A DNA stretch of 24,564 nt from an uncultured Nitrososphaerota archaeon (GCA_964594835.1 CAZQNA010000007.1:1-24564); one strand, 5' to 3'. Positions 461-13,895 are shown, counted from the first letter of the stretch. The notes: a model not told the origin generated them from the letters alone. Numbers and translations: made by a program.

Positions 461-514
461 GGTGGATTCCGTTCCACCCGCCTTTATTAAGCCCGGGTGG
501 AGTCCGTGCCACCC
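461..514. repeat. Two 19-bp near-identical hairpin-forming repeats (GGTGGATTCCGTTCCACCC 461-479; GGTGGAGTCCGTGCCACCC 496-514)
   Basis: 17/19 identity; each has a GGTGG...CCACC dyad; separated by an AT-rich CTTTATTAAG segment. Confidence 0.85.
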
Positions 515-579
515 TACGGAGTTCCTCCTTCATTGGTTCAAAAAGAATGCTTGACTCACAAGCGATTTTCTTTCACATG

Positions 580-588
580 CTTATATCC
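580..588 (+). promoter_or_regulatory. Putative TATA box (CTTATATCC) for the antitoxin-like gene
   Basis: TTATAT about 28-33 nt upstream of ATG 614, the spacing expected for a leaderless archaeal transcript. Confidence 0.55.
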
Positions 589-613
589 TTGGGTCGTGAG
601 AGTGCGCTCAGAC

Positions 614-832
614 ATGCCAGCCGAGGCGAGGCCCAACATCAAGGTGAGCTACAAGGGGAGCCTCGAGGAGGACGAGTTGACCCCGGAGGAGGTTGAGTCC
701 CTCAAGGAGGCAATAATGGACGTCCTCATGGGTAGGACGATGAGCTTCAACGAACTCCTAGACGAGCTGGTGAGGGAGGGGAAGCTCACCGAGGAAGAGG
801 CGGAGGAGCTCAGGGAGCCCGAACAGGACTGA
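614..832 (+). CDS. Small acidic antitoxin-like protein (72 aa; likely start ATG 614 rather than 497)
   Basis: EDELTPEEVESLKEAIMDVLMGRTMSFNELLDEL resembles the acidic C-termini of archaeal RelB-type antitoxins; adjacent to a RelE; TATA upstream. Confidence 0.6.
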   Translation: MPAEARPNIKVSYKGSLEEDELTPEEVESLKEAIMDVLMGRTMSFNELLDELVREGKLTEEEAEELREPEQD

Positions 833-1147
833 GGGGATCTTGAACCTCATTCCTCTGAATCCCCTCCTTCTGTGCCAGACGTCCAGAAGGTAGACGACCT
901 TCTCCTCCTGACTGATCGCGTAGAAGACCCTGTAGGCCCTCTTGGGGCCGACCTTCAGCTCCCAAATTTGGGCCTCAACCCTGCCCACGGGAGTATCCAC
1001 GGGAAAGGAACCCTTCAGCCTCTTCCCAGTCGTGGGGTCTCGCTCCAGTCCAGACTCCCTTATGTCCCTCAAAATCTCCCTGACCACTGGCGGGTCAAGC
1101 TTGCTGAGTCGCTTGCTGAACTTCGACGTGGGGACGAGCCTCCACAT
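758..1147 (-). CDS. relE: RelE/ParE-family toxin
   Basis: WRLVPTSKFSKRLSKLD...GKRLKG...WELKVG...YRVFYAI...VYLLDVWHRR matches the RelE fold pattern. Confidence 0.85.
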   Translation of the reverse strand: MWRLVPTSKFSKRLSKLDPPVVREILRDIRESGLERDPTTGKRLKGSFPVDTPVGRVEAQIWELKVGPKRAYRVFYAISQEEKVVYLLDVWHRRRGFRGMRFKIPSVLFGLPELLRLFLGELPLPHQLV

Positions 1148-1177: not shown

Positions 1178-1186
1178 CTTTTAAAT
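1178..1186 (-). promoter_or_regulatory. Putative TATA box (ATTTAAAAA on the minus strand) for relE
   Basis: About 31 nt upstream of ATG 1147 in otherwise GC-rich DNA. Confidence 0.55.
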
Positions 1187-1228
1187 GGAGGCGTGCCCTT
1201 TTCCACTCTGGAGCCCCCAAAGCCGTGC

Positions 1229-1250
1229 CGTTACGCGTAACGTAACGCTC
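1229..1250. repeat. 14-bp palindrome CGTTACGCGTAACG followed by another GTAACGCTC
   Basis: Read directly at 1229-1242; shares the GTAACG core with the element-wide motif. Confidence 0.8.
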
Positions 1251-1329
1251 GGGTCAGGGAGTCCGCCAGCCTGCCGACATCGACCAAGGCGAGCGTCACC
1301 AATCTGGTCCCAGGCCCATCTCAACGGGC

Positions 1330-1761
1330 TCACGAGATCAGCCCCGACCTCTTGAGCCACCTCTTGAGGTTTGAGACGGTCAGCCTGCCCAGCCTGCCGT
1401 CCCTGCCGGGCTTCGTCCAGATCCAGGCCCTGGCCCTGGAGGACAGGAGGGACTCGGGGCTGTGAGGGTAGCCCAAGACCCCGACCACCACGAAGGGCTC
1501 GGGGTGCTCCCTCCTGAATGCCTCGTTTACCCTCCTGATCAGCCGGTCGAAGGTCTTGGAACCCTTGACCTCGATGAAGGCCCTCCTGCCGTCGTGGATC
1601 AGCTCGATGTCGTAGGGGGCGTGGTCTGACTGCGTTACCACCCTGACGTCCGGCAGGTTGAGCCAGGCAAGCATGACCTCCAGGGCCTCAGTAACTGCCC
1701 GCTCGAGCCTGAGGCCCATTCTCCTGTTGTAGCCGCCTAGGGCTGACCCGCGAGAGGTCAC
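1330..1761 (-). CDS. PD-(D/E)XK endonuclease, Hjc/restriction-endonuclease-like
   Basis: NRRMGLRLERAV (Hjc-like N-terminal G..xE motif) and PYDIEL...FIEVKG catalytic motif. Confidence 0.75.
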   Translation of the reverse strand: MTSRGSALGGYNRRMGLRLERAVTEALEVMLAWLNLPDVRVVTQSDHAPYDIELIHDGRRAFIEVKGSKTFDRLIRRVNEAFRREHPEPFVVVGVLGYPHSPESLLSSRARAWIWTKPGRDGRLGRLTVSNLKRWLKRSGLIS

Positions 1762-1767
1762 TATCGG

Positions 1768-1962
1768 CTACCTCCCAAAGCGAGGAACTCCCGATGTGTC
1801 AAAATCTTCAACGGCACCGGGGGAGGAGCGGGGCGGGCTGAGGTCGGAACTAACCGCATCTCTCGAGCGGTAGGCGGTAGCTGAGAATGCCCGCGGAAAA
1901 TTGGATGGCTGTGAGAGGAGATAGGCGGGAGAGAGAAAGTAGCGGGCGGGTATGCCCCTCAT
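1768..1962 (-). CDS. Possible small hypothetical protein (64 aa)
   Basis: ATG overlaps the ATPase stop (ATGA) and the ORF ends 6 nt before the nuclease start; no recognisable motif. Confidence 0.3.
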   Translation of the reverse strand: MRGIPARYFLSPAYLLSQPSNFPRAFSATAYRSRDAVSSDLSPPRSSPGAVEDFDTSGVPRFGR

Positions 1963-3590
1963 TTTCTGCCACCGGCTCCCTCCCACTTCCGCACCACCCT
2001 GTCGTAGCTGGAGCCATTGGCATTCACGTGGGCAAGGTAGCGCTGGACATCGAGAGAGCCCCACAGATTTCCCTCCGTGTCCCGCCAGAATCTAAAGCCC
2101 GCGGTCCTCAGGTGGAGCCTGTTCTTGGGTACCCTCAGCATCTCCTCGACCTTGCTCGGGGAGAGGTAGATCTGGGCCTGCCTCCCCCAGAGCTCTCTGG
2201 CCCAGGACGACACCTGAGAGATCGAGAAGTTGAAGGCCTCGTGCCCGTCTAACGGGGCCTTCAGCTTGAATATCTTGACGAAGAGGGCCATCTTGAGCGA
2301 TATCCTGTTCAGCACCATCGCCTCGGGCGGCGGAAGTTCGACCTCGAGGCGGTCCAGCTCGTCGACATCGGGCTCCCTCTGTAGAATCTGAGCCCTGGCC
2401 AGCCAGAACCTGTACCGCCTCCTGGCCTCCACGAATTCCTCTCTGAGTTCTCTCCTGGGGATCAGCTCAGCGTACATCCTGCTGAGCCTGGCGGCATCCT
2501 CGGGGCTCCTGGGTTCTGGCATCCTGAGGCTCATGGGGGGAGGCGATGTCACGAGTTCAGCGTGCCCATTCTTGGCAATGAAGATCCACTTGCCTGGGAC
2601 CATCTTCCTCATGGGGGCCACCGTGTGGATCACGGCCTCGGATATCGGGAAGTACTTGGCCAGCTCCTTCCTCTGCCTCTCCTCCTTCAGGTTCATGGGG
2701 TGCACGAAGACGGCCTGGGTGTTGTCCAGCAGGGTCTTGGGAACGCTCTGGACGTTCTGAACCTCGTAGAAGACTCGAGTCAGCGCGGTCCTCGTCTGCC
2801 TGAGCAGGGTGACGAAGTTCTCGATTCGCTCCCTGAGGTGCCACGTCGAGCCCATCGCCCCGACCCTGGGCGCGACTTCCCTCAGCTCGCGGAAGTGGAC
2901 TATGATCCTGGCGTCCTCTATGGCCTGGACGAGGTGACCCATGAGGTTGTCCAGGACCACGTTCAGGGCGAACCTGCCCAGGTCCCTGACGCTCGGCTTG
3001 AAGTAGGCGTTGCTCAGCACGGTGAACTCGTGCCTCTGAACCGTCCTGACGAGCTTATCAGGCTCCAGAGGGCTCTCGTCATCGAGGAAGCCCGAAGTTA
3101 GTAACGCAAGTAGCCTGGAGCTGACCCTCTCCCCCCGCTTCCTGAGCAGGGCCTCGATGATGTCGTCGAGCTTGGCGTCGGGGCCTCCAGCCTGGTAGTA
3201 GGCGTCGAAGAGATCCCTGGCCTCGGAGGGACTCAGGAACCCTCCCAGCGTCCTGAAGTGTCCGAAGCTCAGCATCCTGACGCTGAGAGGGGCCAGCCTG
3301 AACCTCGTGGGTATGGCCTCCATGGCCAGGGGGAAGTTGAAGGTCAGGTACTCCACGTCCCACCCTCGGGGCTCGAGACCCCTGGCCCTGAGGGTCCTGG
3401 CCTGCAACCCTCGAGCGGGCAGGTGGAGGGTCTCGTCCTCACCCTTGACGTCGATTATGAGGGGGTGCCAGCCCCTCAGGGCGAGGAGCTCCAGCACGAG
3501 CTGAGCCGTCCAGGTCTTGCTCGCTCCCCTTATGCCGATGAAGCCGATGCACGCTGTCTCCCTGGCCAGGATCTGCTCGAGGTAGCTCAT
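1959..3590 (-). CDS. Divergent HerA/FtsK/VirB4-superfamily P-loop ATPase
   Basis: GIRGASKT Walker A variant followed by IIDVKGE (HerA/TraD-like hhDxxGE); IVHFRELREVAP at the Walker B position; LRQTR...YEVQ at the Arg-finger/Q-motif positions. Confidence 0.7.
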   Translation of the reverse strand: MSYLEQILARETACIGFIGIRGASKTWTAQLVLELLALRGWHPLIIDVKGEDETLHLPARGLQARTLRARGLEPRGWDVEYLTFNFPLAMEAIPTRFRLAPLSVRMLSFGHFRTLGGFLSPSEARDLFDAYYQAGGPDAKLDDIIEALLRKRGERVSSRLLALLTSGFLDDESPLEPDKLVRTVQRHEFTVLSNAYFKPSVRDLGRFALNVVLDNLMGHLVQAIEDARIIVHFRELREVAPRVGAMGSTWHLRERIENFVTLLRQTRTALTRVFYEVQNVQSVPKTLLDNTQAVFVHPMNLKEERQRKELAKYFPISEAVIHTVAPMRKMVPGKWIFIAKNGHAELVTSPPPMSLRMPEPRSPEDAARLSRMYAELIPRRELREEFVEARRRYRFWLARAQILQREPDVDELDRLEVELPPPEAMVLNRISLKMALFVKIFKLKAPLDGHEAFNFSISQVSSWARELWGRQAQIYLSPSKVEEMLRVPKNRLHLRTAGFRFWRDTEGNLWGSLDVQRYLAHVNANGSSYDRVVRKWEGAGGRK

Positions 3591-4852
3591 CCCTCCCCGC
3601 CCTCAGATTCCTCCCCAACGCCGCCCTGTTCGAACGCTTCCATGATGTCCGTGCGCGTCAGAGACCTCGGGGGCTTCTTCTCGACGTTGGCCATGGCCTC
3701 GATGTAGACCTCAGGGTACCTCCTCATCAGCTCCGGGATCAGGACCTCAGCGGCCCTCGCCAGCGCCTGATAGGCCGCGCCGACATTGAGGTAAATCCCG
3801 TTTATGCCCAGCGTCCCCTTCGGGCTGGCCTGGGCTCCCTTCAGGATGAGGTAAGCCTCGTCCACGGTCCGTATGACTACATTCGACTCTGGGTCTCCCC
3901 TAAGTGTCCAAACCGCCAGCGGGGCCTTGGGCTCTATTCCGAGGGCCGCCAGCAGGGGGGCCAGCTCGAAGATGAAAATGGTCAGCTTGTGCTGTTCCGC
4001 GTGGTAGTTGAAGTACCGGGCCAGCACCGTGACGAGGGTCTTCCTCATGGCCTCGTTCAGCTCGATCCTGCCCCCGTAGGACCTGACCGCCTCACCGGGC
4101 TCGATCACCTTACCAGGTGGACCCATGACCAGGCCGACGTCCGTCGCTAGGATGCCGACGGTCTGCCCCTCGAGGTCGACGGTCAGGAGGCGGTCCGGGG
4201 CCTCCACTTCCGCGTAGTGAGCGGCCATCTCACCGGTTGGCCTAAGTTCAGTCCAATATTGGCTGACGTGGACGGACTCCTTCAGGTTCTCAGCGAGCCA
4301 CTTCCTGGCGTCTACCCTGTACTCGGTCCAGCCCCTGTTTCTCACTAGGTCCAGGATGATATCCCTGACCCTCGGGGGAACCTTCAGAACCTTTACCTTG
4401 CCATCTTCAACGTATTCGGGCACGATCGACTTCAGCTCCTCTATCTGAGCCTTCAGCTTGGAGTTCTCCTCCTCGCTGGACTTGAGTCTGCCCTTCAGCT
4501 CCTCTATCTCGCCCTTGAGTCTGCGGTTCTCCTCCTCGAGCTTCTTAGCCCCCTCCCGAGAGCGCCTCAACTCTCCCTCCCTCAACTCCAGCCTCTCGGT
4601 CAGCCTCCTCTTCTCGTCCATCAGATTCGTTACCTGCCTGGCGAGCCTCTCCCTCTCTTGGTCTTCCCTCGACTCCAGCGCCCTCTTCTCCGCCTTAAGC
4701 CTCAGGACCTCGTTGGTCAGCCTCTCGATCTCAGCCTTGAGTTCCCTGATTCTCTCCTCCCTCTGCTGGAGCTTCTCCCTCAGGGCCTCGATCTCCCGCC
4801 TGAGACGGGCGATCTCGATGTCTGCCCGAAAGAACTCCACCACCTTACTCAT
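3587..4852 (-). CDS. Protein with a long N-terminal coiled coil (~140 aa) and an unknown C-terminal domain
   Basis: E/K/R/L heptad pattern over residues ~10-145; start/stop overlaps with both neighbours. Confidence 0.75.
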   Translation of the reverse strand: MSKVVEFFRADIEIARLRREIEALREKLQQREERIRELKAEIERLTNEVLRLKAEKRALESREDQERERLARQVTNLMDEKRRLTERLELREGELRRSREGAKKLEEENRRLKGEIEELKGRLKSSEEENSKLKAQIEELKSIVPEYVEDGKVKVLKVPPRVRDIILDLVRNRGWTEYRVDARKWLAENLKESVHVSQYWTELRPTGEMAAHYAEVEAPDRLLTVDLEGQTVGILATDVGLVMGPPGKVIEPGEAVRSYGGRIELNEAMRKTLVTVLARYFNYHAEQHKLTIFIFELAPLLAALGIEPKAPLAVWTLRGDPESNVVIRTVDEAYLILKGAQASPKGTLGINGIYLNVGAAYQALARAAEVLIPELMRRYPEVYIEAMANVEKKPPRSLTRTDIMEAFEQGGVGEESEGGEG

Positions 4853-5564
4853 TCACTTCGGCCTCCCCGGGCGTTGGACGCCTCGTCATCTCGAGGCCAG
4901 GCCGCCCGGTCGCCTCCACCCGATCGTCGGGTGGCTTTTCGCAAACGAAGCTTGCGACCTCGTCAACCAGCCTCTCCTTGGTCTCCTCGATCGCGTGGGC
5001 GTAAACCTGCGTAATCTTGAGGCTGGAGTGCCTGGCAAGGTCCTGGACGTCCCTCGGGCTCCCTCCCCTGAGCAAGCTGAGGGTCACGAAGGTATGCCTG
5101 AGCGTGTGGCAGTGTCCGTCGGGCCTGCCTATCTGGGCCATCAGTCGCTTGACCCTGGCCTGAACCGCCCGCTTGGAAACGTGCTTGCCCGCCCTTCTGG
5201 GCGAGGGGAAGAGCCACTCGTGCCCCTCGCTTCTCTTGAGCTGTTTACGAAGGTCTCGGAGCAGGGGCTGGGGTATCGGGAGCCACGCCTCGACCCCACC
5301 CTTTCCCCTGACAAACAGCCTCTTGGCAGGCAGGTTCACCTCGTCCCTCCGAACCTTGACGGCCTCGTGGACCCTGAGACCCATGAAGAGCATGAGACCG
5401 TAGATCAGCCGCCAGGGGAGCGGTTCCTTACTAGCTAGAGACCAGAAGGCCCGGGCCTCAGACGGGCTCAGGAACCCCTTTGGCGACCACCCTCTTGAAA
5501 TTCGGGATCTTTTACCCCGAGAACTGCCACCCTGGCTAGAAACGACCCTTACCTTCTCGCCCAA
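4845..5564 (-). CDS. Short tyrosine recombinase (catalytic domain only)
   Basis: GLRVHE (R), GKGG (K), HTLRH (HxxR), ARHSS (H), TQVY (Y); only ~30 aa precede the catalytic domain. Confidence 0.9.
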   Translation of the reverse strand: MGEKVRVVSSQGGSSRGKRSRISRGWSPKGFLSPSEARAFWSLASKEPLPWRLIYGLMLFMGLRVHEAVKVRRDEVNLPAKRLFVRGKGGVEAWLPIPQPLLRDLRKQLKRSEGHEWLFPSPRRAGKHVSKRAVQARVKRLMAQIGRPDGHCHTLRHTFVTLSLLRGGSPRDVQDLARHSSLKITQVYAHAIEETKERLVDEVASFVCEKPPDDRVEATGRPGLEMTRRPTPGEAEVNE

Positions 5565-5968
5565 TAATCACCACCTCTTGAACCGATAATCGTAAAATCG
5601 AAAAAGGAAGGGAGAGATGGGAAGGCAGGCAATGCGCCCTTCGCCCCGAAGTGTGCACAGGCCTCGTCCTCCTCCTCGTCCTCGTCTTCAGGGTCCTCGG
5701 GTACTGGAGGCCCTCTGAACGGCAGCATGTCGGGGTGGTCCAGCGGGTCCTCGGGGTGCGTTACCAAGGCGCCTGGGTTGGTAACGCAGTCCTCCACCTC
5801 CCCGTCGTCGGGCTCCTCCCTGGGGTCGACCCCCTCGGGTACTAGCACCTGAGGCATAGGGGAGTAGTCCTCAGGGCTGTCAACCTCGAGGGGCAGCCAG
5901 CCCAGGGGCTCCTCGGGCTCACCATGCGTTACCAAGTCCAGGGTCGGGTTGGTAACGCTCTCCGTCAA
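5549..5968 (-). CDS. Acidic, Pro-rich hypothetical protein carrying DNA inverted repeats
   Basis: Start overlaps the upstream stop (TTGA); its VTNP..LVTH peptide repeats correspond to DNA inverted repeats. Confidence 0.5.
   Translation of the reverse strand: MTESVTNPTLDLVTHGEPEEPLGWLPLEVDSPEDYSPMPQVLVPEGVDPREEPDDGEVEDCVTNPGALVTHPEDPLDHPDMLPFRGPPVPEDPEDEDEEEDEACAHFGAKGALPAFPSLPSFFDFTIIGSRGGDYWARR
5757..5788. repeat. Inverted repeat TGCGTTACCAA-N10-TTGGTAACGCA
   Basis: Perfect 11-bp arms at 5757-5767 and 5778-5788. Confidence 0.95.
5926..5958. repeat. Inverted repeat GCGTTACCAA-N13-TTGGTAACGC
   Basis: Perfect 10-bp arms at 5926-5935 and 5949-5958, same arm sequence as 5757-5788. Confidence 0.95.
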
Positions 5969-6186
5969 CCCACCAGCACCTCCCTCAGGGCCAGCCTGAC
6001 GGCCTCCTCAACGCTCTGAGCCCTCAGCTTCAGGATCAGCTCGTAGCTCGAGCCCACCTCTGGCGTGAACCTGGCGTAGAATGCCCCATCTCGCGTGTAG
6101 AGCTTGAGCCTCCAGCCGTCGTGCCCCAGCACGGCCAGCCTCTTCGCTCCCCTCGGCAGCCTGTGGAGGTACACCACCTCAGTCAA
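5965..6186 (-). CDS. Small hypothetical protein (73 aa)
   Basis: Overlap-coupled with both neighbours; codon usage matches the element. Confidence 0.65.
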   Translation of the reverse strand: MTEVVYLHRLPRGAKRLAVLGHDGWRLKLYTRDGAFYARFTPEVGSSYELILKLRAQSVEEAVRLALREVLVG

Positions 6187-6589
6187 CAGTCATCACCTCC
6201 AGCCCGACCCTTTCCAGGGCCGGATGGCCCTCAGCCCTGAGCAGGGCCAGGACCTGCCTGCCCAGGGGAGTCAGACCGTTCCAAACGGCCTGCCTTCCGT
6301 TTGCGATCCCGATCCTCCGGCTGATCAGGCCCAGGGCGGCCAGTTCTAGGAGCCTCTGGTGGGTGTGGGTCCACGAGCCGACCCTCCTGATCACCTCCCT
6401 GGTCCAGAGGGCGCCGCCTCCCTCCTCGATCGTCGCGAGAATCCTGACTAGGCTGGGCCTGCGCCTCAGGGCCTCCAGGACTTCCGGCTCGATCCCGTCT
6501 CGGGAGGCCAGGGCCGGGTCGGGGGAGGTCCCTTCTTCAGAAAGAGGGGCGATCCCGACCCTGGCCTCTCCCGCGGGCTCAGCCATCAC
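6179..6589 (-). CDS. Winged-HTH DNA-binding protein (ArsR/MarR-like)
   Basis: RILATIEE...TREVIRRVG...RLLELAALGLISRR...LTPLGRQVL is a wHTH pattern. Confidence 0.7.
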   Translation of the reverse strand: MMAEPAGEARVGIAPLSEEGTSPDPALASRDGIEPEVLEALRRRPSLVRILATIEEGGGALWTREVIRRVGSWTHTHQRLLELAALGLISRRIGIANGRQAVWNGLTPLGRQVLALLRAEGHPALERVGLEVMTVD

Positions 6590-7995
6590 TGATCACCTCC
6601 CCTCACCTCGATGACGCCAGCCTCCTCGAGTGCCTGGAGTAGGTTGTCCCTGAGATGCCTGAGTCCCTCGGGGTCCTTAGACGGCCCCAATCTGCCCTTG
6701 AGGGTTAGAAGAGTTCTCCAAGTCGGTGGATTGACCTTCCCCTTCGAGTTGTAGGCTAGCTTCCGCAGATAGTGTCGGACATCCTTCTCGGGGTCGGGCT
6801 TGGCCTCTAAGCACCTCCTGACGTAGTCCTCGGCCTCCTCCCTCTCTACCAGCCCAATCCCAACCGCTGGCCCGAGAACCCTCCAGATGAGAGTCTGCCT
6901 GCCGTCAGCCGGGTAGATGCCTCCTAGGAGGACCTCTATGTAGCCGTAGCCCTCCAAGCTGGCCGGGTAGACGACCCTGAGCCCATCCACCTCCAGGACC
7001 CTCGACTCCACCTCCTCGACCTCAACCTCCACGCGCCTCCTCGAGGGCCGGGGCTTGGAGGCGCCTCTGACCCTCTCGAGGGCTCTCCTCCTCTCGACCC
7101 TCTCCCTGGCCCTCGTGAAGAGGTCCAGGAAGGCCTCGACGCCCCTCTCTCCGTCAAGGTAGCCCCAGTCTCCCGAGGCCCTGCCTAGGCCCTCGAGACT
7201 GTAGAGACGGCCAAAGTTCCTCTCGCAGAATGGAGGCCAGCCGAGTCTGGCGGGAACGCAGACCGTGCCAGTCTCGTGGGGGCTGTAGATTGCCCTGATC
7301 GTCCCGTTGGCTCGGTAGATTTGGTGGTCGAAGATCAGCCTGTACCCGGCCCTGGCGGCCCTCCTCTCCAGCATCCTGGCAAGCTCTGAGTAGACCGCCC
7401 AGACATCGCCAGACATCAGCGACCTGAGCCTCTCTGACCCAAGGGAGCCGAGGGCCGAGAGTTCAAGATAGCCGTGAACCCCACCATGCGTCAGGACCCA
7501 TCTAATTCGGATTCCGCGCTCCCTCAGCCACCCGTCAAGAAACCTGAGGCCTTCCCACGCCTCGAGCCTCCTGGGCTGATGCTTCCAATCAAGGTCAAGG
7601 GTGAAGTCGACGATCACGGTCTCGTCCATGTAGAGCCTGTGGAGGGTCAGGAAGAAGCAGGGGATGGTCAGGTCCATCGAGAGTCCGCTCACCACGGCCC
7701 TGAAGCGCTTGAGATCCGTGGTGACCCTGAGGCGGGAGAAGATCCCGTCAGATCTATTCCCAACTTGGAACTCCCTGAAGGTCAGGATCTCCCTCCCTTC
7801 AAGCTCCATGGGCCTCTCGACCTGCCTCCAGATCACGGAGAGCAGGTCGTCGAGCGCCAGTCTGATCCTCCTGATCCTCTCCAGCCTCTCGGCCTCGTGG
7901 TCGGGTCTCGGTACCGGCAGGTCCTGCCTGAGGATTGCCAGCTTCTCCTTGACCTCGGGCGATAGCTTCTTGATCTCCACAGCCTGTCTGCTCAT
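6586..7995 (-). CDS. Archaeo-eukaryotic primase (AEP/PriS-like) with a PriX-like C-terminal domain
   Basis: DFTLDLD (DxD motif I), THGGVH (motif II), FDHQIY...IRAIYSPHETG (motif III region); C-terminal YIEVLL...DGRQTLIWRVLGP...EEAEDYVRRC recalls PriX. Confidence 0.75.
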   Translation of the reverse strand: MSRQAVEIKKLSPEVKEKLAILRQDLPVPRPDHEAERLERIRRIRLALDDLLSVIWRQVERPMELEGREILTFREFQVGNRSDGIFSRLRVTTDLKRFRAVVSGLSMDLTIPCFFLTLHRLYMDETVIVDFTLDLDWKHQPRRLEAWEGLRFLDGWLRERGIRIRWVLTHGGVHGYLELSALGSLGSERLRSLMSGDVWAVYSELARMLERRAARAGYRLIFDHQIYRANGTIRAIYSPHETGTVCVPARLGWPPFCERNFGRLYSLEGLGRASGDWGYLDGERGVEAFLDLFTRARERVERRRALERVRGASKPRPSRRRVEVEVEEVESRVLEVDGLRVVYPASLEGYGYIEVLLGGIYPADGRQTLIWRVLGPAVGIGLVEREEAEDYVRRCLEAKPDPEKDVRHYLRKLAYNSKGKVNPPTWRTLLTLKGRLGPSKDPEGLRHLRDNLLQALEEAGVIEVRGGDQ

Positions 7996-8279
7996 CTCTC
8001 CCGCCTCCCAAAGAGCATCTCTGAGCCATCGAAGAGGATCAGCACTAGGGAGCCATCGGGCATCTTCTCCAGCCTACCAACGCCTAGGAAGGCGAGCCAG
8101 GTCTCGGATGTCTCTGCTTCGACCAAGGCCGATGTCAATTCCTCCAAGTTCTTACCAGTCGCTTTCGAGATCTCCTCGAGTGCCACGGCAAGCTCTTCAT
8201 CTCCGCCCTCGACCCACGACCACCATGCCCTGAGAGCCAGACCCTGGAGGTCGGCTTCTTCGATCGAGAGGGTCCTCAC
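7992..8279 (-). CDS. Small acidic hypothetical protein (95 aa) between helicase and primase
   Basis: GTGA/ATGA overlaps with both flanking genes. Confidence 0.65.
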   Translation of the reverse strand: MRTLSIEEADLQGLALRAWWSWVEGGDEELAVALEEISKATGKNLEELTSALVEAETSETWLAFLGVGRLEKMPDGSLVLILFDGSEMLFGRRER

Positions 8280-10447
8280 TCGCTCACCCCCCTGAGTTGG
8301 GCCTCAATCCACGCCTTTACTGCCTCCAAACCTCTCTCGTCGCTCAACTTCCTGAGTCTAGCAAAGAGAACCGCTATATCTCCCTCACTCGGCTCTTCCC
8401 CGCCTTTCAAGACTTTGAAAAACTCCCTCAGAGCCTCACGGAGATCCTCGTCTCTCCTCCAGCTTAGTCCATGCTCTCTCCAGATCCCGATTGCTCGGTT
8501 GGCCCAATGAAGCGCTCTGAAAAGCTCTCTTGAATGTGCATATGACCCCTTGTCTTCGAAGGCGCCGGAAATGTCGGAAGCGCCGGAAGTGGCGGAAGCC
8601 CTTTCTAGCGTTTCGGTCTTTTCCGACATTTTCGGCAGCTTTGGAGACAAAGATCCATCACCAACTTTGAGTGGGTCAGCCTCTTCCCTCCAAGAGCCGA
8701 GAGGCTCGATGTCCTGAATGGGCTCGGCTTCATGGAAGATCACGTGAAGTCTTCCATCCACCCGCTTCAGCTCGAGCCCGAAGAATCGCTTTAGGCGTTC
8801 GTTATGGCGATCTGGGTTGCGCCTAAGCACATCGTGAATGATCTTCGAGAAATAAAGCCCCGAGGAGGGCGTGTAGTGCCGAGAAAATGCTAGGAGATCG
8901 ATCTCAGCCCCTCTCTCAATCTTCCCTGCCCTCCTAGCGTGCTCGCACGCACTAATGATCTCTTTGAGGTAAGTAGGCAGAGCCTCGAACGTAGCCCTGA
9001 CCTGCTTCGACCACGTTTCCTCCCAAGTTGCATTAATGGCCTTCAGGCTCGCGAGAACATCGTTTAGATAGTCAAGGAGCAGGTCTTCGGCCAGCGCCAA
9101 GAGTTCGTTAACACACATCTCGCCCAGGGCTAGATCTTTGAGTTGGCGAAAGATCGCGGCTCTCAGAGCCGCGTTTCTGAGCCTCACCTGGCCCGCGGTG
9201 ACGAAATTCCCAAGGAAGTCGCTGACAAGTTCATCGTCGATCCCTTTGATTGCATCGAGCGCCAAGTCCCTCCATGCGTCCATTGGACGGTTTAGCCAAT
9301 CCCAGACCGCCGGATCAGCGTAAATAGCCTCAATCTGAGGGCGAGCTAACTCCTCGACGGCGCGCGCGATCTCGATTGCAGCCCGCCACTCAGCCCTCTC
9401 TTGTGGACTGAGCTTCCTCTTCAAGGGTTGAGCATCCTTGAAATAATAGATTAAGCCGAATCGACGGCCCAGAGATGGATTTAGTGTCAGTTTACTGATC
9501 AAATGCCCAAAGGACCTAGCACTCTCGCCCACGCCAGGGTTCGCCAGAAAGATCAGAAGCCCGCCAAACCGCACACTGAAGTTTGTGCCTCCTGTAGAAA
9601 TCCGCGCCACGCCCGTCTCGCCTAAATCAAAGAGATAGCGGGCAATCGCCCACGCAGATTGTTCGTCGATTTGATCTATAGCATAAGGAAGATCCACTCC
9701 GTCCAAGGAGCCCGGATAAATCTCCTTCCCCGATTTGGCATATCCCAAGAGTCCGTTTGCCGTAACCTTCGCGTCATGCCTCCCAGCAAGCTCGTAAAAC
9801 TCCGATTTTCCAATCCCGCTCGGTGCGGCCACGAGGGCCCAGGGCTCGGCCTGAGGGACAACCCCGCGCAGGAAGGTAGCCTCGCGTAGCCTTAGAAGCC
9901 TAGGGTCGACTCCCTCGCCTCTCTCGTTCTCCTCCCTGCTGAATCCAAAGCCGACGACCGCGTTCACGGCCTCAGCCCAGTCAAGATTACGAACGAGTTT
10001 TGGATCCTTGAGGAGCCCTACCGGGCGGTAGAGAACCTTCCCCAGGCTTTGGAGGAAGTTTAGTGCTTCCCTCCACTTATCTCTTCCCCTCTGACCCTCA
10101 TGTGAGGTCCAGCCCCAGTCTTGGGCAACTCGCACGAGAATCTGCCGAACTGCGGGATAGGCCTCACCTAACTCCTCGATCTCGGCCACATCTGGCCCAT
10201 CCAGCAATTCCAAGGCGAGGCAAAGGTCTCCAGGGCTGATCAGGTCATCACGGTCATAGATAAGGACAGGAGGCGCAGTCCTATGCACGGCACCCTTCCA
10301 CAGGCGCGCCCCAATGCCCGCTGAGGATAGGCTCGTTGAATTCAGGCCCAAGCGCGGCTCTGTGAACTCGAGTCTGACATATCCGAGTTCAACTCTTGGA
10401 TTGAGAAGTTCGCGTGCGAGTTCGCGCCACGCACGCACCTCATTCAT
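8276..10447 (-). CDS. Divergent MCM-like AAA+ helicase
   Basis: APSGIGKS Walker A, TANGLLG...PGSL helix-2 insert region, AIDQIDE Walker B variant, ANP sensor-1, LGRRF Arg finger, VRL sensor-2; next to a primase. Confidence 0.75.
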   Translation of the reverse strand: MNEVRAWRELARELLNPRVELGYVRLEFTEPRLGLNSTSLSSAGIGARLWKGAVHRTAPPVLIYDRDDLISPGDLCLALELLDGPDVAEIEELGEAYPAVRQILVRVAQDWGWTSHEGQRGRDKWREALNFLQSLGKVLYRPVGLLKDPKLVRNLDWAEAVNAVVGFGFSREENERGEGVDPRLLRLREATFLRGVVPQAEPWALVAAPSGIGKSEFYELAGRHDAKVTANGLLGYAKSGKEIYPGSLDGVDLPYAIDQIDEQSAWAIARYLFDLGETGVARISTGGTNFSVRFGGLLIFLANPGVGESARSFGHLISKLTLNPSLGRRFGLIYYFKDAQPLKRKLSPQERAEWRAAIEIARAVEELARPQIEAIYADPAVWDWLNRPMDAWRDLALDAIKGIDDELVSDFLGNFVTAGQVRLRNAALRAAIFRQLKDLALGEMCVNELLALAEDLLLDYLNDVLASLKAINATWEETWSKQVRATFEALPTYLKEIISACEHARRAGKIERGAEIDLLAFSRHYTPSSGLYFSKIIHDVLRRNPDRHNERLKRFFGLELKRVDGRLHVIFHEAEPIQDIEPLGSWREEADPLKVGDGSLSPKLPKMSEKTETLERASATSGASDISGAFEDKGSYAHSRELFRALHWANRAIGIWREHGLSWRRDEDLREALREFFKVLKGGEEPSEGDIAVLFARLRKLSDERGLEAVKAWIEAQLRGVSE
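8562..8638. repeat. Opposed 9-bp iteron-like arrays inside the MCM-like gene
   Basis: GCGCCGGAA-ATGTCGGAA-GCGCCGGAA-GTGGCGGAA (8562-8597), then inverted units; CCGGAAATGTCGGAA (8565-8579) vs TTCCGACATTTTCGG (8621-8635) is a 14/15 inverted match. Confidence 0.85.
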
Positions 10448-11108: not shown

Positions 11109-11558
11109 TTACTGTTCCGCCAACTTACTCACGATTCTGGATTTGAGGTTTTGTACCCCCAACCAAAACCTCCGAGCCCATGGAACTGGCAGACTCTTTC
11201 TACCCTCCTCTGTGATTGCAAAGACCCCTCTCTTGACTCTTGTGACTTTCCCCTCATTTATGAGTTCCCTGAGGAGGTCATAAGTCCAAGATCTAGAGAG
11301 ACCCAACTCCTCAGCTAGCTTATCGGCCCTCTTGGGACCCTTCGCCAACTCCTCTAGGATAGCCTCTTTGGCCTCTTCAGGTCTCCACTCTGAAGTTTCA
11401 GATGCGACGAAGAAGACCCAGGCAATTGTGAGTAGAAGGAGGATGAGATCTTCTGTGAAAAATCCAACATAGATGACTTGAAACAGCCATAAAAGAGTCA
11501 TTAAGGAGCCTTTGTGCCTGTCAAACCACTTCTCCTTTCTTCTTTCCCCATTAGGCAA
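11109..11558 (-). CDS. Membrane-anchored winged-HTH protein
   Basis: Two hydrophobic segments (residues ~19-53), then EAILEELAKGPKRADKLAEELGLSRSWTYDLLRELINEGKV...ITEEG wHTH. Confidence 0.75.
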   Translation of the reverse strand: MPNGERRKEKWFDRHKGSLMTLLWLFQVIYVGFFTEDLILLLLTIAWVFFVASETSEWRPEEAKEAILEELAKGPKRADKLAEELGLSRSWTYDLLRELINEGKVTRVKRGVFAITEEGRKSLPVPWARRFWLGVQNLKSRIVSKLAEQ

Positions 11559-11564
11559 CCCTGA

Positions 11565-11765
11565 TCACCTCTCTCCAATTATCCGCTCTACTTCAGTCTC
11601 TGGCACGACGTAGATCCCGCTGGGGAGCTTTACCGCCTTGATCTTCCCTTCCTTGATCCACCTCCAGACCGTCCTCCTGCTCACGCCCAAGATCTCAGCA
11701 ACTTGGCCGAGCTTAAGGTGCCTCTCAAACTCTGTCGACTTGGTCAACTTGAGACCACCAAGCAC
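11565..11765 (-). CDS. xis: Excisionase / MerR-like HTH_17 DNA-binding protein
   Basis: LKLGQVAEILGVSRRTVWRWIKEGKIKAVKLPSGIYVVPETEVERI; directly downstream of the integrase. Confidence 0.85.
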   Translation of the reverse strand: MLGGLKLTKSTEFERHLKLGQVAEILGVSRRTVWRWIKEGKIKAVKLPSGIYVVPETEVERIIGER

Positions 11766-11776
11766 AAATGAGACAG

Positions 11777-11830
11777 AAGGTAACAGAAAAACAAGGTTGG
11801 TAACGCTTGGTAAGAGTTGGTAACGCTCTC
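11777..11830. promoter_or_regulatory. Tandem 10-bp direct repeats TTGGTAACGC-TTGGTAAGAG-TTGGTAACGC (11797-11826) plus an in-phase AAGGTAACAG (11777-11786)
   Basis: Read directly; fills the int-xis intergenic gap; the regulatory role is inferred. Confidence 0.75.
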
Positions 11831-11831
11831 T

Positions 11832-12992
11832 CTAAGAGCCCTCGAGGAGTCTCTCCTTCACGACCTTCAAGATGGCCTCCTTTACTCTCGGGTCTGAGAG
11901 CAGGGCTAGGATCTCTTGGTCAATCGCCTCCTTTTTCTCCAGAGCCCGTCTCCTGGCCCTCTCACTGAGCGGATATCCACATCGAAGGCAGAACTCCGCG
12001 TCCCGAGGGTTCACGTAACCGCAGTTCGGGCAGGCCTCGGGCCTCAGGGGGCTCTCCTCCTCGCTGACCTCCTCGGGCTCGATTCCGTGGACCTTCCTCA
12101 GCACCGCCCGCTCCACATCCCTCCCGCTGAGGTGAACGTAGACCGCGGCCATCTTCGAGTCCGCCCCCCAGCCCGCAAAGGCCTTCAGTTCCTGCTCCGT
12201 CAGCCTCTTCGCCAGCTCGGTCAGCCTTGTGTGCCTCAGCATGTGGGGGTGGACGCTCTTCCCGAGCCCTGCCCTCTCTCCGGCCCTCCTCACTATCTGG
12301 TATAGCGCCCTCCTCGTCAGGGGGCCGCCTCCCCTCTCCACGAAGAGGGGGGCGTCGGGGTCCCCGGGCCTTGGGTGGACCTGGAGCCACGCCCTGAGGT
12401 AGGGCGCGGAGTCGTGGAGGGGAATGGTCCTGACTCCCGTCTTCCCCCTGACCCTGATCCTGAGGCCGTATTCCGTGAACTCCAGGTCTCGCATCCTCAG
12501 CGAGCACAGCTCCCCGGCCCTCAGGGCGCCCTCGTAGAGCACCGCTATGGCGGCCTTGTACATCGGGTTCCTCCCGGCCTTCACCAAAGCCCTGACCTCC
12601 TCGGGGCTGAGGACCTTGTCCCTGAGGTTGTCCACCTTGGGGGGCCTGACCCTCACCTCCTCCCACGCCTCAGGGAGCTTCCCCCCGTTCCTCCACCTCA
12701 CGAGCGCGCTCAGGCGGGCGTGGTACTGCCAGGCGGTCCTCTCGCTCCTCCCTCCCGCCTTCAGCTCCGAGAGGAACTTCCTTATCGCCTCCGAGTCGGC
12801 ATCCCAGGGCATCGTCCTGATCGTCTGCCACCAGGCCCTTGCCGCGGTCAGCATGCCCAGCTGAGACTCCTGTGAGAGCCCCCTCTCCAGAAAGTAGGAC
12901 TTCAGGGTTTTTGAGAACTCATCGGGGAGCTCCCTCAGCCCCCTCTCGATCTTCTCAGCCGCGCGGGGATCCCCGACCATCGGCTGGCCCAT
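11832..12992 (-). CDS. int: Tyrosine integrase with a C-terminal zinc ribbon
   Basis: ALRAGE, GKTG, HMLRH, AGW, AVYVH catalytic motifs; CPNC...CLRC; adjacent to xis. Confidence 0.92.
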   Translation of the reverse strand: MGQPMVGDPRAAEKIERGLRELPDEFSKTLKSYFLERGLSQESQLGMLTAARAWWQTIRTMPWDADSEAIRKFLSELKAGGRSERTAWQYHARLSALVRWRNGGKLPEAWEEVRVRPPKVDNLRDKVLSPEEVRALVKAGRNPMYKAAIAVLYEGALRAGELCSLRMRDLEFTEYGLRIRVRGKTGVRTIPLHDSAPYLRAWLQVHPRPGDPDAPLFVERGGGPLTRRALYQIVRRAGERAGLGKSVHPHMLRHTRLTELAKRLTEQELKAFAGWGADSKMAAVYVHLSGRDVERAVLRKVHGIEPEEVSEEESPLRPEACPNCGYVNPRDAEFCLRCGYPLSERARRRALEKKEAIDQEILALLSDPRVKEAILKVVKERLLEGS

Positions 12993-13049
12993 GTGACACT
13001 CCCTTAAAAGGGTGGTGGTAACGTAAACATTCGGTGGCTATTAAGGTTT

Positions 13050-13895
13050 TTACGCTCCCGAACGCCCACGCATCCTGAACAGCTTCTCATACTCCCTCTT
13101 GAGGTGCCTGGTGCTCACGTGCGTGTAGATCTGGGTCGTGCTCAGGCTGGCGTGCCCAAGAAGCTCCTGGATCGCCCTTATGTCCGCTCCGGCCTCCAGC
13201 AGGTGGGTCGCCAGAGAGTGCCTCAGGGTGTGGGGCGTGACCCTCTTCTGGATGCCAGCCCTCTCCGCCGCGGCCTTCACGATCCTCTGGACCGTCCTGG
13301 GGCTGACGTCGAAGACCCTCCCGTTGGAGTTCCCAGAGCTCTCCCTCAGCGCCCTGAGCTCGCCGGCCGTCTCCGGGTCTATCAGGACCACGCGATCCTT
13401 CCCGCCCTTCCCGCTCCTGACGAGGATGACTCCGTCCTTCAGGTTAACCCGGTCCCACGTGAGCTCGCAGAGCTCGCCCACCCTCATCCCGGTCACGTAG
13501 AGCGTCCTGAGGAGCAGGCGGGAGCGGTCGTCCCCCGCGGCCTCTATGAGCCTCTCCACCTCCTCCCGGGTGAGGACCGAGGGCAGGGCCCGCCTGACGC
13601 GAGGCCTCTCCACCTCGACGGGGTTCTGCTCGACGAAGTGCCTCTGCTCCATGAACCTGTAGAACGTCCTCAGGGACGCTATGCGCCTCAGGAGGGTCCT
13701 GTCCGCGAGGCCCCTGGACCTCCTCAGGTGGGTCAGGTACCTCCAGATGTCGTCCGGTGTCGCCTCGGCGGCGTCCCTGCCGAGCCACCGCAGGAACCGC
13801 CTCACATCGTAGGAGTACTGGCGGATCGTGCCCGGCCTGTAGCCCTTCACCTCCATCCAGGTGATGAACTCGTCGAGGTAGCCCTCGCTGTCCAT
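13050..13895 (-). CDS. xerA: Tyrosine recombinase XerA (XerC/D-like); likely start ATG 13895
   Basis: SAM-like N-domain, GMRVGE, GKGGKDR, TPHTLRHSLATHLLEAGADIRAIQELLGHASLSTTQIYTHV; a TTTTAA box lies ~26-31 nt upstream of ATG 13895. Confidence 0.9.
   Translation of the reverse strand: MDSEGYLDEFITWMEVKGYRPGTIRQYSYDVRRFLRWLGRDAAEATPDDIWRYLTHLRRSRGLADRTLLRRIASLRTFYRFMEQRHFVEQNPVEVERPRVRRALPSVLTREEVERLIEAAGDDRSRLLLRTLYVTGMRVGELCELTWDRVNLKDGVILVRSGKGGKDRVVLIDPETAGELRALRESSGNSNGRVFDVSPRTVQRIVKAAAERAGIQKRVTPHTLRHSLATHLLEAGADIRAIQELLGHASLSTTQIYTHVSTRHLKREYEKLFRMRGRSGA

Follow-up and report, generated by a model that had tools for sequence, protein, structure and literature searches.

The stretch of DNA analyzed here (the window; 24,564 nt, GCA_964594835.1 CAZQNA010000007.1:1-24564) comprises the first 24.6 kb of contig C7 in an archaeal genome of 1.82 Mb that is 97% complete, and it carries within 1330..5564 a set of four genes, all on the minus strand, identified by open reading frame (ORF) calling. 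In the direction of transcription, these genes encode a predicted short tyrosine recombinase, a coiled-coil protein, a P-loop ATPase of the HerA/FtsK superfamily and a small predicted PD-(D/E)XK nuclease (Table 1). The analyses presented below define the ATPase and the nuclease as the conserved and obligate core of this set, and indicate that the four genes are probably the DNA-handling module of an integrative element, acting on the element's own DNA. As far as the literature search reaches, this combination of a mobile-element motor and a nuclease has not been described before. The initial annotation of the region had proposed the same four ORFs on a single strand with the same domain assignments, all of which were confirmed, and its statement that the window contains no recognizable capsid, relaxase or multi-transmembrane (multi-TM) secretion gene agrees with Pfam, PHROGs and hydrophobicity scans.

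Table 1. Coordinates of the predicted features of the module and of the element that carries it (wHTH, winged helix-turn-helix).
Feature	Position	Strand	Basis or remark
RelE/ParE-like toxin gene, left arm, downstream of nuclease	758..1147	-	Pfam ParE_toxin 26.5 bits, Gp49 25.2 bits
Small PD-(D/E)XK nuclease, 143 aa, NOV_C/DUF3883 type	1330..1761	-	Pfam and motif
Spacer between ATPase and nuclease, 197 nt	1762..1958	-	poorly conserved, C-rich on coding strand
HerA/FtsK-superfamily P-loop ATPase, 543 aa	1959..3590	-	fold of predicted model
Coiled-coil protein, 421 aa	3587..4852	-	stop overlaps ATPase start
Short tyrosine recombinase, 239 aa	4845..5564	-	catalytic domain only, N-terminal core-binding domain absent
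Trio of small genes preceding the recombinase (139 aa and acidic; 73 aa; 136 aa and winged-helix-like)	5549..6589	-	
Two inverted pairs of 10-mer TTGGTAACGC	5758-5787, 5926-5958	.	spacers 10 and 13 nt
Block of putative replication proteins (469, 95 and 723 aa)	6586..10447	-	motifs read by eye
Membrane-anchored wHTH protein	11109-11558	-	TM-like window at residue 22
Direct pair of 10-mer TTGGTAACGC	11797..11826	+	just past integrase stop
Element integrase, 386 aa, tyrosine recombinase with zinc ribbon	11832-12992	-	Pfam, NCBIfam
Right end of element, attR core ATTAAGGTTT	13033..13043	.	7 nt past host xerA stop

The four-gene module and its proteins

The genes of the module had been described as overlapping or near-abutting, which is accurate for the first two junctions (overlaps of 8 nt between the recombinase and coiled-coil genes and of 4 nt between the coiled-coil and ATPase genes) but not for the ATPase and nuclease genes, since a gap of 197 nt is not a near-abutting junction. 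This spacer shows a mean column identity of 52% in an alignment of five loci, and the frame of the nuclease presents an in-frame stop 3 codons 5' of its start. In three of the related loci described below (L005, L024 and L025), unlike in the window, the nuclease ORF overlaps the end of the ATPase gene. The 98-aa ORF listed at 1768-2064, in the spacer region, is probably not a gene.

The ATPase matched no family in Pfam (E up to 0.1), NCBIfam or PADLOC, and a profile search of PDB sequences returned nothing meaningful. Its AlphaFold model is of moderate quality, with a mean predicted local distance difference test (pLDDT) score of 69.8. Over residues 1-368, structural comparison with VIA yielded HerA (Z 12.7, root-mean-square deviation 4.6, 295 aligned residues), VirB4 (Z 11.9), HerA-DUF (Z 11.1) and DndH-C (Z 10.9), followed by TdpA (the HerA, VirB4, DndH-C and TdpA matches together spanning Z 12.7 to 9.5), TrwB (Z 7.5) and the STIV2 packaging ATPase B204 (Z 7.0), and Foldseek retrieved HerA, VirB4, DndH-C and TdpA with E-values from 1.3e-5 to 1e-3. 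The C-terminal ~120 residues (418-539) gave winged-helix matches at VIA Z 5.4-7.0 (JetABC, SarR/SarA, Cdc6, Orc2 and F93). Walker A lies at residues 19-26, and its Lys25 and the Walker B Glu235 are invariant in 21 members of the ATPase family. As modeled, the protein belongs to the FtsK-HerA superfamily, with an additional-strand, catalytic-glutamate (ASCE) P-loop fold bearing the Walker A Lys and Walker B Glu.

Assignment to HerA proper was rejected: the HAS barrel is absent, the Pfam DUF87 cut-off is not reached and the adjacent nuclease is of the NOV_C type rather than NurA. The structural alignments begin at HerA residue 115 (4d2i) or 149 (7f6d), and the HAS barrel is deemed absent because the P-loop of the ATPase starts at residue 19. 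Nonetheless, 3/16 distant family members pass the DUF87 cut-off, which ties the family to DUF87/HerA-like proteins by sequence, though indirectly; a paralogous ATPase encoded elsewhere in the same genome scores 19.8 bits against the cut-off of 23.2. Homologs are few, with 20 clusters among 5.8 billion and, by profile, 21 representatives among 1.84 billion, and a scan of IMG/VR with the ATPase profile produced 66 pattern matches and 0 relatives. Judged from sequence, the ATPase represents a very narrow and new family with an obligate nuclease partner.

The nuclease scores 25.4 bits on Pfam NOV_C/DUF3883 (cut-off 22.1), and a profile search of PDB sequences with it returned nothing meaningful. 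Residues E20, D51 and E64-V are invariant in 7 homologs, and position 66 is Lys in 6/7 and Arg in the paralog. The family match and the motif identify the protein as a predicted PD-(D/E)XK nuclease of the NOV_C/DUF3883 type. Its family comprises 22 clusters, located on contigs equal in size to those of the ATPase matches, and its match in PADLOC is a weak one to TmtA (E 1.3e-3 over 29 residues). The protein also resembles Hjc (PF01870) in its length of ~140 aa and in its E…D…E-x-K arrangement, with a D-to-E spacing of 13 in the nuclease and in the host Hjc alike, and Hjc clusters appear among its language-model neighbors (score 0.91, rank 10). In contrast, it has no Pfam Hjc match at E up to 0.1, NOV_C being its best family, and hhalign gives a probability of 0.7% against the host Hjc. 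Kinship with Hjc is hence treated as a lead only, rather than as established homology.

The AF2 model of the coiled-coil protein (pLDDT 69) consists of one helix spanning residues 2-141 and a mixed alpha/beta region at 147-410, and the protein ends in an acidic Gly/Glu tail. It draws many coiled-coil family matches in Pfam, PADLOC and NCBIfam, and its homologs in four related loci (L004, L005, L008 and L023) are 24-32% identical. The most conserved stretch (H288-K289 … P299-L300 … G305-I306) coincides with the only hydrophobic 19-residue window of the protein, at ~290. Foldseek found no match at E <=0.001, an ESM Atlas search with residues 146-421 gave no usable match, a word-based homolog search returned only the protein itself, and the VIA matches span helix 1-144 only, leaving the C-terminal region barely probed.

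The 239-aa recombinase matches Pfam Phage_integrase over residues 32-191 (E 8.8e-25, 87.9 bits), and R64, H153, R156 and Y188 occupy invariant columns in an alignment of six recombinases. With the Arg…His-x-x-Arg…Tyr signature in place, its sequence identifies it as a tyrosine recombinase. On the NCBIfam XerA model (NF040815) it obtains 91 bits against a cut-off of 220 and covers profile positions 112-258 only, compared with 259.6 bits for the host XerA adjoining the element; being below the equivalog cut-off and devoid of the N-terminal SAM-like domain, it was not accepted as XerA proper and is XerA-like only. A 72%-identical homolog occupies the same position in locus L008, and no close homolog was found among the other 42 genomes of the phylum.

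Recurrence of the ATPase-nuclease pair and the recombinase slot

A gene-neighborhood survey of genome and metagenome collections, which provided 12 informative ATPase loci, showed that the genes recur together. The nuclease follows the ATPase in 10/10 loci with at least 300 nt of downstream sequence (the other two contigs end within 280 nt), and the start of the ATPase gene lies within the end of its upstream neighbor in at least 11 of the 12. Among the 43 species genomes of the phylum, the ATPase is present in 7 and the integrase family of the element in 13, and both the ATPase and the nuclease families were met only in Korarchaeota-like archaea. The recurrence of the gene set exceeds chance, and the ATPase-nuclease pair is its conserved, obligate core. 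The notion of a four-gene module is therefore upheld in that the set recurs, but what is obligate is the ATPase-nuclease pair, with an upstream protein translationally coupled to it, rather than the full set of four.

The five closest ATPases (67-82% identity) form one group in the tree, with moderate support (82/88), and a coiled-coil homolog lies upstream of the ATPase in 5/5 loci of this clade. One of these loci, L004 (G000:C3:116000-135999), resides in the same genome as the window, where it is part of a second, larger element of ~24 kb (contig C3, ~112,000-136,400). Relative to the window, its integrase is 76% identical over the whole gene (80% over the L004 part), its ATPase 78% and its nuclease 67%. 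The paralogous element also encodes a 1023-aa Prim-Pol replication gene and, directly after the nuclease, a 991-aa Eco57I/MmeI-like methylase protein. Homologs of the 139-aa and 73-aa proteins are found in L004, and one of the 73-aa protein also in L023; the three small predicted genes upstream of the recombinase accompany the module in related DNA.

In more distant loci (L010, L012, L013, L024 and L025; ATPase identity 34-59%), the pair lies within a conserved array encoding a 700-930-aa PEGA/CarboxypepD_reg Ig-like protein, a ~300-aa protein, small coiled-coil and ~130-aa proteins, TM-wHTH proteins and 4-TM proteins of 390-426 aa. Comparison of the 120-138-aa proteins that precede the ATPase in distant loci with the C-terminal domain of the coiled-coil protein gave an hhalign probability of 1.6%, confined to the tail. 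The arrays of L025 (G039:C7:1-20000), L024, L010 and L013 additionally contain two-helix small membrane proteins, very large anchored surface proteins and 4- to 6-TM proteins that include an Rce1-like protease. In L006 and L009, only a TM-wHTH gene was seen before the ATPase. The L025, L024, L010 and L013 arrays are candidates for a Korarchaeota transfer apparatus or virion module.

The arrays raise the question of packaging by a helper virus, according to which the element would be a satellite whose terminase-like motor and nuclease are shared with virus-like elements and which would travel in their particles. The large Ig-like and small two-helix membrane proteins that surround the pair are possible virion parts, B204 is among the fold matches of the ATPase, a weak PHROG terminase match was obtained (E 0.0025), and junction-cutting nucleases help packaging in phages such as T4. 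We nevertheless regard this scenario as distinctly unlikely. No capsid protein was recognized in the window or in the distant loci with Pfam and PHROGs, no relative appeared in IMG/VR or in the phage collection, the genome itself has no helper-type genes, and the packaging ATPases known of the FtsK/HerA type are far smaller, at 204 residues for the B204 chain.

A small recombinase precedes the coiled-coil gene in 5/5 closest-clade loci, and it is of three unrelated kinds. The first, the window type, is present in the window and in L008. The second is a different short tyrosine recombinase found in L023 (194 aa) and L005 (189 aa), which shares 40% identity (E 9e-38) with the recombinase (183 aa) of pMEFER01, a plasmid of the pT26-2 family. 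The third is a serine resolvase, encoded in the paralogous element L004 (Pfam E 2.6e-49). The kind of recombinase is not in step with the ATPase tree. The position constitutes a swappable slot, filled by two unrelated tyrosine types and a serine resolvase, and whichever recombinase occupies it may serve the element as integrase or resolvase instead of being tied to the motor as a constant partner. For L005, a 205-aa ORF was ruled out as the recombinase, the actual one being the 189-aa ORF in another frame. The L023 locus (G026:C19, ~5859-7466) has an ATPase gene broken by one in-frame TGA; as no integrase of the int386 type was detected in its genome at E 1e-30, that element may have the short recombinase of 194 aa as its only one.

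Upstream of the recombinase, 180-400 nt from its start and inside the acidic 139-aa ORF, lie the two inverted pairs of the 10-mer TTGGTAACGC. The window presents 6 exact copies of this 10-mer, with 0.32 expected even when one mismatch is allowed, and 0/100 shuffles reach 10. The 10-mer is absent from all the other loci, and no clustered repeated 10-mer of this sort was found in five other elements. Since it is absent elsewhere and the peptides encoded at the 10-mer are not conserved in the L004 homolog, it resembles a DNA-level site, and the pairs are candidates for an operator, a recombination site or a translocase recognition site.

A constant but exchangeable recombinase is also what would be anticipated of a stability module of a free plasmid, in which the recombinase would resolve multimers, the motor, steered by its winged helix and by the coiled-coil protein, would align or segregate copies in the manner of FtsK-XerCD and the nuclease would remove leftover junctions. 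That three unrelated kinds occupy the slot directly upstream in all five close loci argues that recombinase activity, not a particular protein, is needed there. In pairing a motor with a C-terminal winged helix, the ATPase parallels FtsK with its motor and gamma domain, the catalytic residues of the nuclease have an Hjc-like spacing, the inverted 10-mer pairs could be recombinase sites, and the downstream toxin gene parallels plasmid resolution-plus-addiction regions, of which the RK2 par region is an example. However, in the distant loci the pair persists although no small recombinase adjoins it, and serine resolvases form no Holliday junction, so that a junction nuclease would be idle in the paralog. 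Furthermore, the only annotated recombinase of pMEFER01 is of the short type seen in L023 and L005, which may therefore simply be an integrase, and no ParA-like or centromere-binding protein was recognized with Pfam and NCBIfam. On this evidence we consider a stability module unlikely.

The integrative element and its host

The borders of the element were established by comparison with an empty site in a sister species (G009), where blastn joins the sequences corresponding to C8:101070 and C7:13043 with contiguous flanks. The left end of the element falls on the preceding contig C8, at ~101,070, and the end of C8 is identical to the 55 nt that open C7. The join of C8 and C7 together with the empty site yields an insert of ~13.8 kb, whose G+C content is below that of its surroundings, and a short core of ~10 nt, ATTAA(A)GGTTT, is present at both ends. 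A search for att sites by shared words of at least 12 nt had retrieved chance matches only. In a metagenome (run X2), a 4.9-kb contig with the empty site occurs beside element-bearing contigs, and the element is therefore polymorphic in nature. These observations define a bounded, integrative, plasmid-like and recently mobile element.

In the direction of transcription, the element begins with the integrase (12992) and continues with a small helix-turn-helix (HTH) ORF, the membrane-anchored wHTH gene and the genes for the 723-, 95- and 469-aa proteins; further leftwards follow the three small proteins, the four-gene module, the RelE/ParE-like toxin and two small ORFs. A small unlisted ORF at ~11565-11770 (-), in the gap between the integrase and the TM-wHTH gene, appears excisionase/MerR-type HTH-like in a by-eye translation. 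The toxin gene matches a PHROG RelE-like toxin (E 6.3e-8) and has a 70%-identical paralog on contig C5. Candidate antitoxins are a convergent 111-aa ORF at 497-832 (+), which has a C5 paralog, and a 59-aa ORF at 1181-1360 (-), just upstream.

The proteins of the putative replication block found no match in Pfam, PHROGs, PADLOC or NCBIfam, and those of 469 aa (6586-7995) and 723 aa (8276-10447) none in PDB sequences either. By eye, the 469-aa protein shows primase-polymerase-like motifs and the 723-aa protein a P-loop, and the block may be a new replication module. As the four-gene module adjoins this block, we considered whether it might serve replication or recombination, with the ATPase as a branch-migration or replicative helicase and the nuclease resolving the replication intermediates of the element. 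HerA-type rings process DNA ends together with nucleases, according to PDB titles, and the nuclease motif is Hjc-like. In contrast, the replication block varies (Prim-Pol of 1023 aa in L004, 723-aa and 469-aa proteins here) while the pair is constant, and an Hjc and five DUF87 proteins are already encoded by the host. Furthermore, in contigs of runs X5 and X7, position 6844 is followed by 23 nt of other sequence and then by 11841, so that the module can occur in DNA that lacks this replication block. Contigs of X5 span 1492-6409 with 95-99% likeness, and none of the runs listed for the window was of RNA; parts of the window are uncovered in both runs, and these gaps were not used for any conclusion. 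A role in replication is, in our view, highly improbable, and both the processing of replication intermediates and packaging into helper particles are less supported than the other readings.

The host, a Korarchaeota-like archaeon of hot vents, is marked as a hyperthermophilic archaeon by its reverse gyrase and XerA, and relatives of the genes studied are labeled Korarchaeota or Thermoproteota. In the metagenome locus L013, a XerA-like gene (60% identical) directly precedes the ATPase-bearing array; together with the insertion beside xerA (13033-13052), this may reflect a shared insertion preference or use of Xer. Adjoining xerA and reverse gyrase, the host encodes at 13979-16858 (+) a 959-aa protein with PQQ/BamB-like beta-propeller repeats, a Pro-rich linker, a membrane anchor and a C-terminal coiled-coil.

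Function and relation to known systems

The roles that the initial annotation had listed, namely segregation, dimer resolution, transfer and defense, all figure among the readings considered here. We tentatively favor a function in which the motor and the nuclease mobilize or package the double-stranded DNA of the excised element, by analogy with TdtA-NurA of Thermus ICETh1 or TraB, and we hold this reading plausible, though short of probable. The small recombinase would act on the element through excision, monomerization or another site-specific step. The ATPase would assemble as a ring, as HerA, VirB4 and FtsK do, and the coiled-coil protein, whose gene overlaps the ATPase start, would recruit or position it. 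The ATPase would recognize the element via its C-terminal winged helix and translocate double-stranded DNA to the cell exterior or into a carrier, with the Hjc-like PD-(D/E)XK nuclease cutting or debranching the substrate for passage.

Export or packaging is preferred because the motor bears a winged helix, is strictly paired with a small junction-type nuclease and is coupled to an upstream adaptor, as well as because of the membrane and surface protein arrays of the distant loci, the precedent of ICETh1 and a similar proposal for the pT26-2 core (PMC5365140, PMC6972569, in the portions of these papers available). Furthermore, the pair resides in mobile DNA, as evidenced by the empty site, its patchy spread (7/43) and two diverged copies in one genome, and the motor with its C-terminal winged helix has the layout of the FtsK motor plus gamma domain. 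Pfam, PHROGs and the hydrophobicity scan revealed no other candidate for cell-to-cell spread in the window element, which we count in favor of mobilization. The arrays of the distant relatives suggest a complete envelope-spanning transfer or virion-like apparatus, of which the window element would keep the cytoplasmic part only.

Several observations weigh against mobilization. The window element has no pore or pilus candidate, the coiled-coil protein presenting a single hydrophobic window, and a Kyte-Doolittle scan of the ATPase detected no hydrophobic 19-residue window and hence no transmembrane segment, which the nuclease lacks as well. Confidence in the ATPase model is lowest in its nucleotide-binding core (pLDDT <50 at residues 1-28 and 224-277). 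The genome that harbors the window encodes no counterparts of the membrane and surface proteins seen in the distant loci: 2/22 queries matched, both to the paralogous element. The ATPase of pMEFER01, compared as a single sequence, shares only its P-loop with the window family (hhalign probability 3%). A toxin-antitoxin-like gene lies beside the module and a restriction-modification-like gene beside its paralog, which is the usual company of defense genes.

Locus L044 (G041:C6:15000-34999) carries the integrase family and homologs, 26% and 36% identical, of both large proteins of the putative replication block (those of 723 and 469 aa, in no stated order) and lacks the module; the backbone can therefore exist without it, as expected of an exchangeable block akin to accessory defense genes. 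The initial annotation had termed the module possibly self-contained, a description that is not borne out: the module forms a single block within an integrative element of 13.8 kb, and the L044 backbone and the X5/X7 contigs indicate that the module and the three small upstream genes behave as a transferable block. In place of the module, L044 encodes proteins of 215, 144, 314 and 721 aa, two of them with signal-peptide-like starts.

These same features bear on the possibility that the module is defense cargo, in which a HerA-like scaffold would activate the PD-(D/E)XK effector against invading DNA, as in SIR2-HerA and DUF4297-HerA, with the coiled-coil protein as sensor or regulator. We deem this rather unlikely; even so, a defense pair is well alive, because a related backbone lacks the module, its neighbors are toxin- and restriction-like and the window element has no pore or anchor. 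The best structural matches of the ATPase include HerA-SIR2, HerA-DUF and TdpAB complexes, the RelE/ParE-like toxin gene and the type IIG-like methylase protein of the paralog are neighbors in keeping with such a role, as is the weak match of the NOV_C-type nuclease to TmtA in PADLOC, and two diverged copies in one genome fit diversifying defense genes. On the other hand, no PADLOC model matches the ATPase, which also lacks the HAS barrel, the docking place of the NurA, SIR2 and DUF4297 partners on HerA. In addition, a C-terminal winged helix suits specific rather than general foreign DNA, and neither the fixed place of the pair in long conserved membrane and surface arrays of the distant loci nor the constant upstream site-specific recombinase of the close clade is typical of defense islands.

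Returning to mobilization, its most novel form would be a pathway of archaeal gene transfer not recognized before, in which a minimal donor machine without a relaxase exports the excised double-stranded element; we regard this as possible but doubtful. Such a machine would consist of a HerA/FtsK-like motor that reads DNA through its own winged helix, together with a coiled-coil adaptor and a nuclease of the junction type, would be switched on together with a freely exchangeable site-specific recombinase, and would have its complete apparatus in the larger relatives. Almost no mobile elements have been described for Korarchaeota, and a 2026 survey reports, in the part of it available, no provirus in 124 Korarchaeota genomes (PMC13573593). 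The present work defines a bounded mobile element with its empty site, a narrow ATPase family with an obligate nuclease, two settings of the pair (small integrative plasmids and large membrane-protein arrays) and a slot for three recombinases. If the donor-machine reading is true, Korarchaeota would gain their first described mobile elements equipped with a transfer system, and if the motor moves the DNA of the element, it would show relaxase-free transfer of double-stranded DNA in archaea, a question shared with the Sulfolobus conjugative plasmids and the pT26-2 family. A defense pair would instead add a HAS-less, winged-helix-bearing branch to the HerA defense systems. On either reading, the proteins are small, thermostable and suited to biochemistry.

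Comparison with known systems upholds the earlier judgment that the set is not a named system, within the reach of PADLOC, Pfam, NCBIfam, PHROGs and tblastn, because none of the four collections matched the set and tblastn found it in neither plasmid records (one chance-level match, E 0.2) nor phage records (none). The literature search likewise yielded no description of this gene set in the portions of the papers it covered, whose supplements, outside that search, might list related islands.

The Thermus thermophilus element ICETh1 is a 14.9-kb low-GC integrative element with its own site-specific recombinase, in which the HerA-like TdtA and a NurA-like nuclease are required for DNA donation; its further genes include those for a type IIG restriction enzyme and a methylase, and it is reported not to replicate after excision (PMC5365140, as far as its available text goes). 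The window element resembles it in being an integrative element of ~14 kb with its own recombinase and a G+C content below that of a thermophilic host, and in encoding an ATPase of the HerA/FtsK superfamily, hexameric in ICETh1, beside a nuclease, with no relaxase and no classical type IV secretion genes. Restriction or methylase genes in or beside the operon are a further resemblance, which here concerns the paralogous element. In contrast, and on the same part of the source, the NurA-like nuclease is encoded upstream in ICETh1 and the small PD-(D/E)XK nuclease downstream here, ICETh1 has no coiled-coil partner, putative replication genes are present here, and DNA donation, shown for TdtA, is only conjectured for the window ATPase. 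No sequence relation to ICETh1 was found in a comparison that left out TdtA itself.

The module also shows likeness to systems of the HerA group, namely the repair complex HerA-NurA and the defense systems SIR2-HerA (Nezha), HerA-DUF4297 and TdpAB, in the core fold of the ATPase and its pairing with a nuclease or effector gene. It differs from them in that the window ATPase has no HAS barrel, DUF87 match or PADLOC match, and in that the set has another nuclease family, a C-terminal winged helix and a translationally coupled coiled-coil partner. In PADLOC-DB 2.0, the ATPase matched 0 families and the recombinase 0, and the coiled-coil protein gave only coiled-coil matches to LmuB and JetC. With type IV secretion and archaeal conjugation the likeness is one of fold only (VirB4, TrwB), with no VirB4/VirD4 family match and no multi-TM protein in the window element, unlike the distant loci, which do have 4- to 6-TM neighbors.

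Hyperthermophilic archaea harbor the integrative plasmids of the pT26-2 family, for whose core module a role in DNA transfer has been proposed and which, in the part of the source available, are reported only in Thermococcales and Methanococcales (PMC6972569). These plasmids resemble the window element in their hyperthermophilic archaeal hosts, and the distant loci in a conserved block with a large PEGA/carboxypeptidase-regulatory protein, many membrane proteins and a HerA/VirB4-like ATPase beside variable replication and integration genes, to the extent covered by that text. The window element differs from the family, as so described, in being without a membrane part. The protein encoded after the pMEFER01 ATPase is unrelated to the nuclease, and the PEGA proteins gave a non-significant BLASTP E of 0.1.

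FtsK and TraB are ring translocases whose C-terminal winged helix reads short DNA repeats, and they act with or adjoin site-specific recombinases; in Streptomyces plasmids and actinomycete integrative conjugative elements, TraB is a single motor that suffices for the transfer of double-stranded DNA. The module shares with FtsK-XerCD and TraB the superfamily, the combination of a motor with a C-terminal winged-helix fold, here a predicted one, and the proximity of a recombinase. Unlike these proteins, the window ATPase has no FtsK_SpoIIIE match in Pfam or NCBIfam and no N-terminal membrane anchor, and its winged helix matched JetABC, SarR/SarA and Cdc6/Orc, with FtsK gamma absent among the VIA matches listed. 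To our knowledge, neither the FtsK nor the TraB system includes a nuclease partner. Taken together, these comparisons place the set outside HerA proper, FtsK/TraB, VirB4/VirD4, the PADLOC systems and, as far as tested, the pT26-2 core; in its presumed mode of working, the module would be most like TdtA-NurA and TraB.

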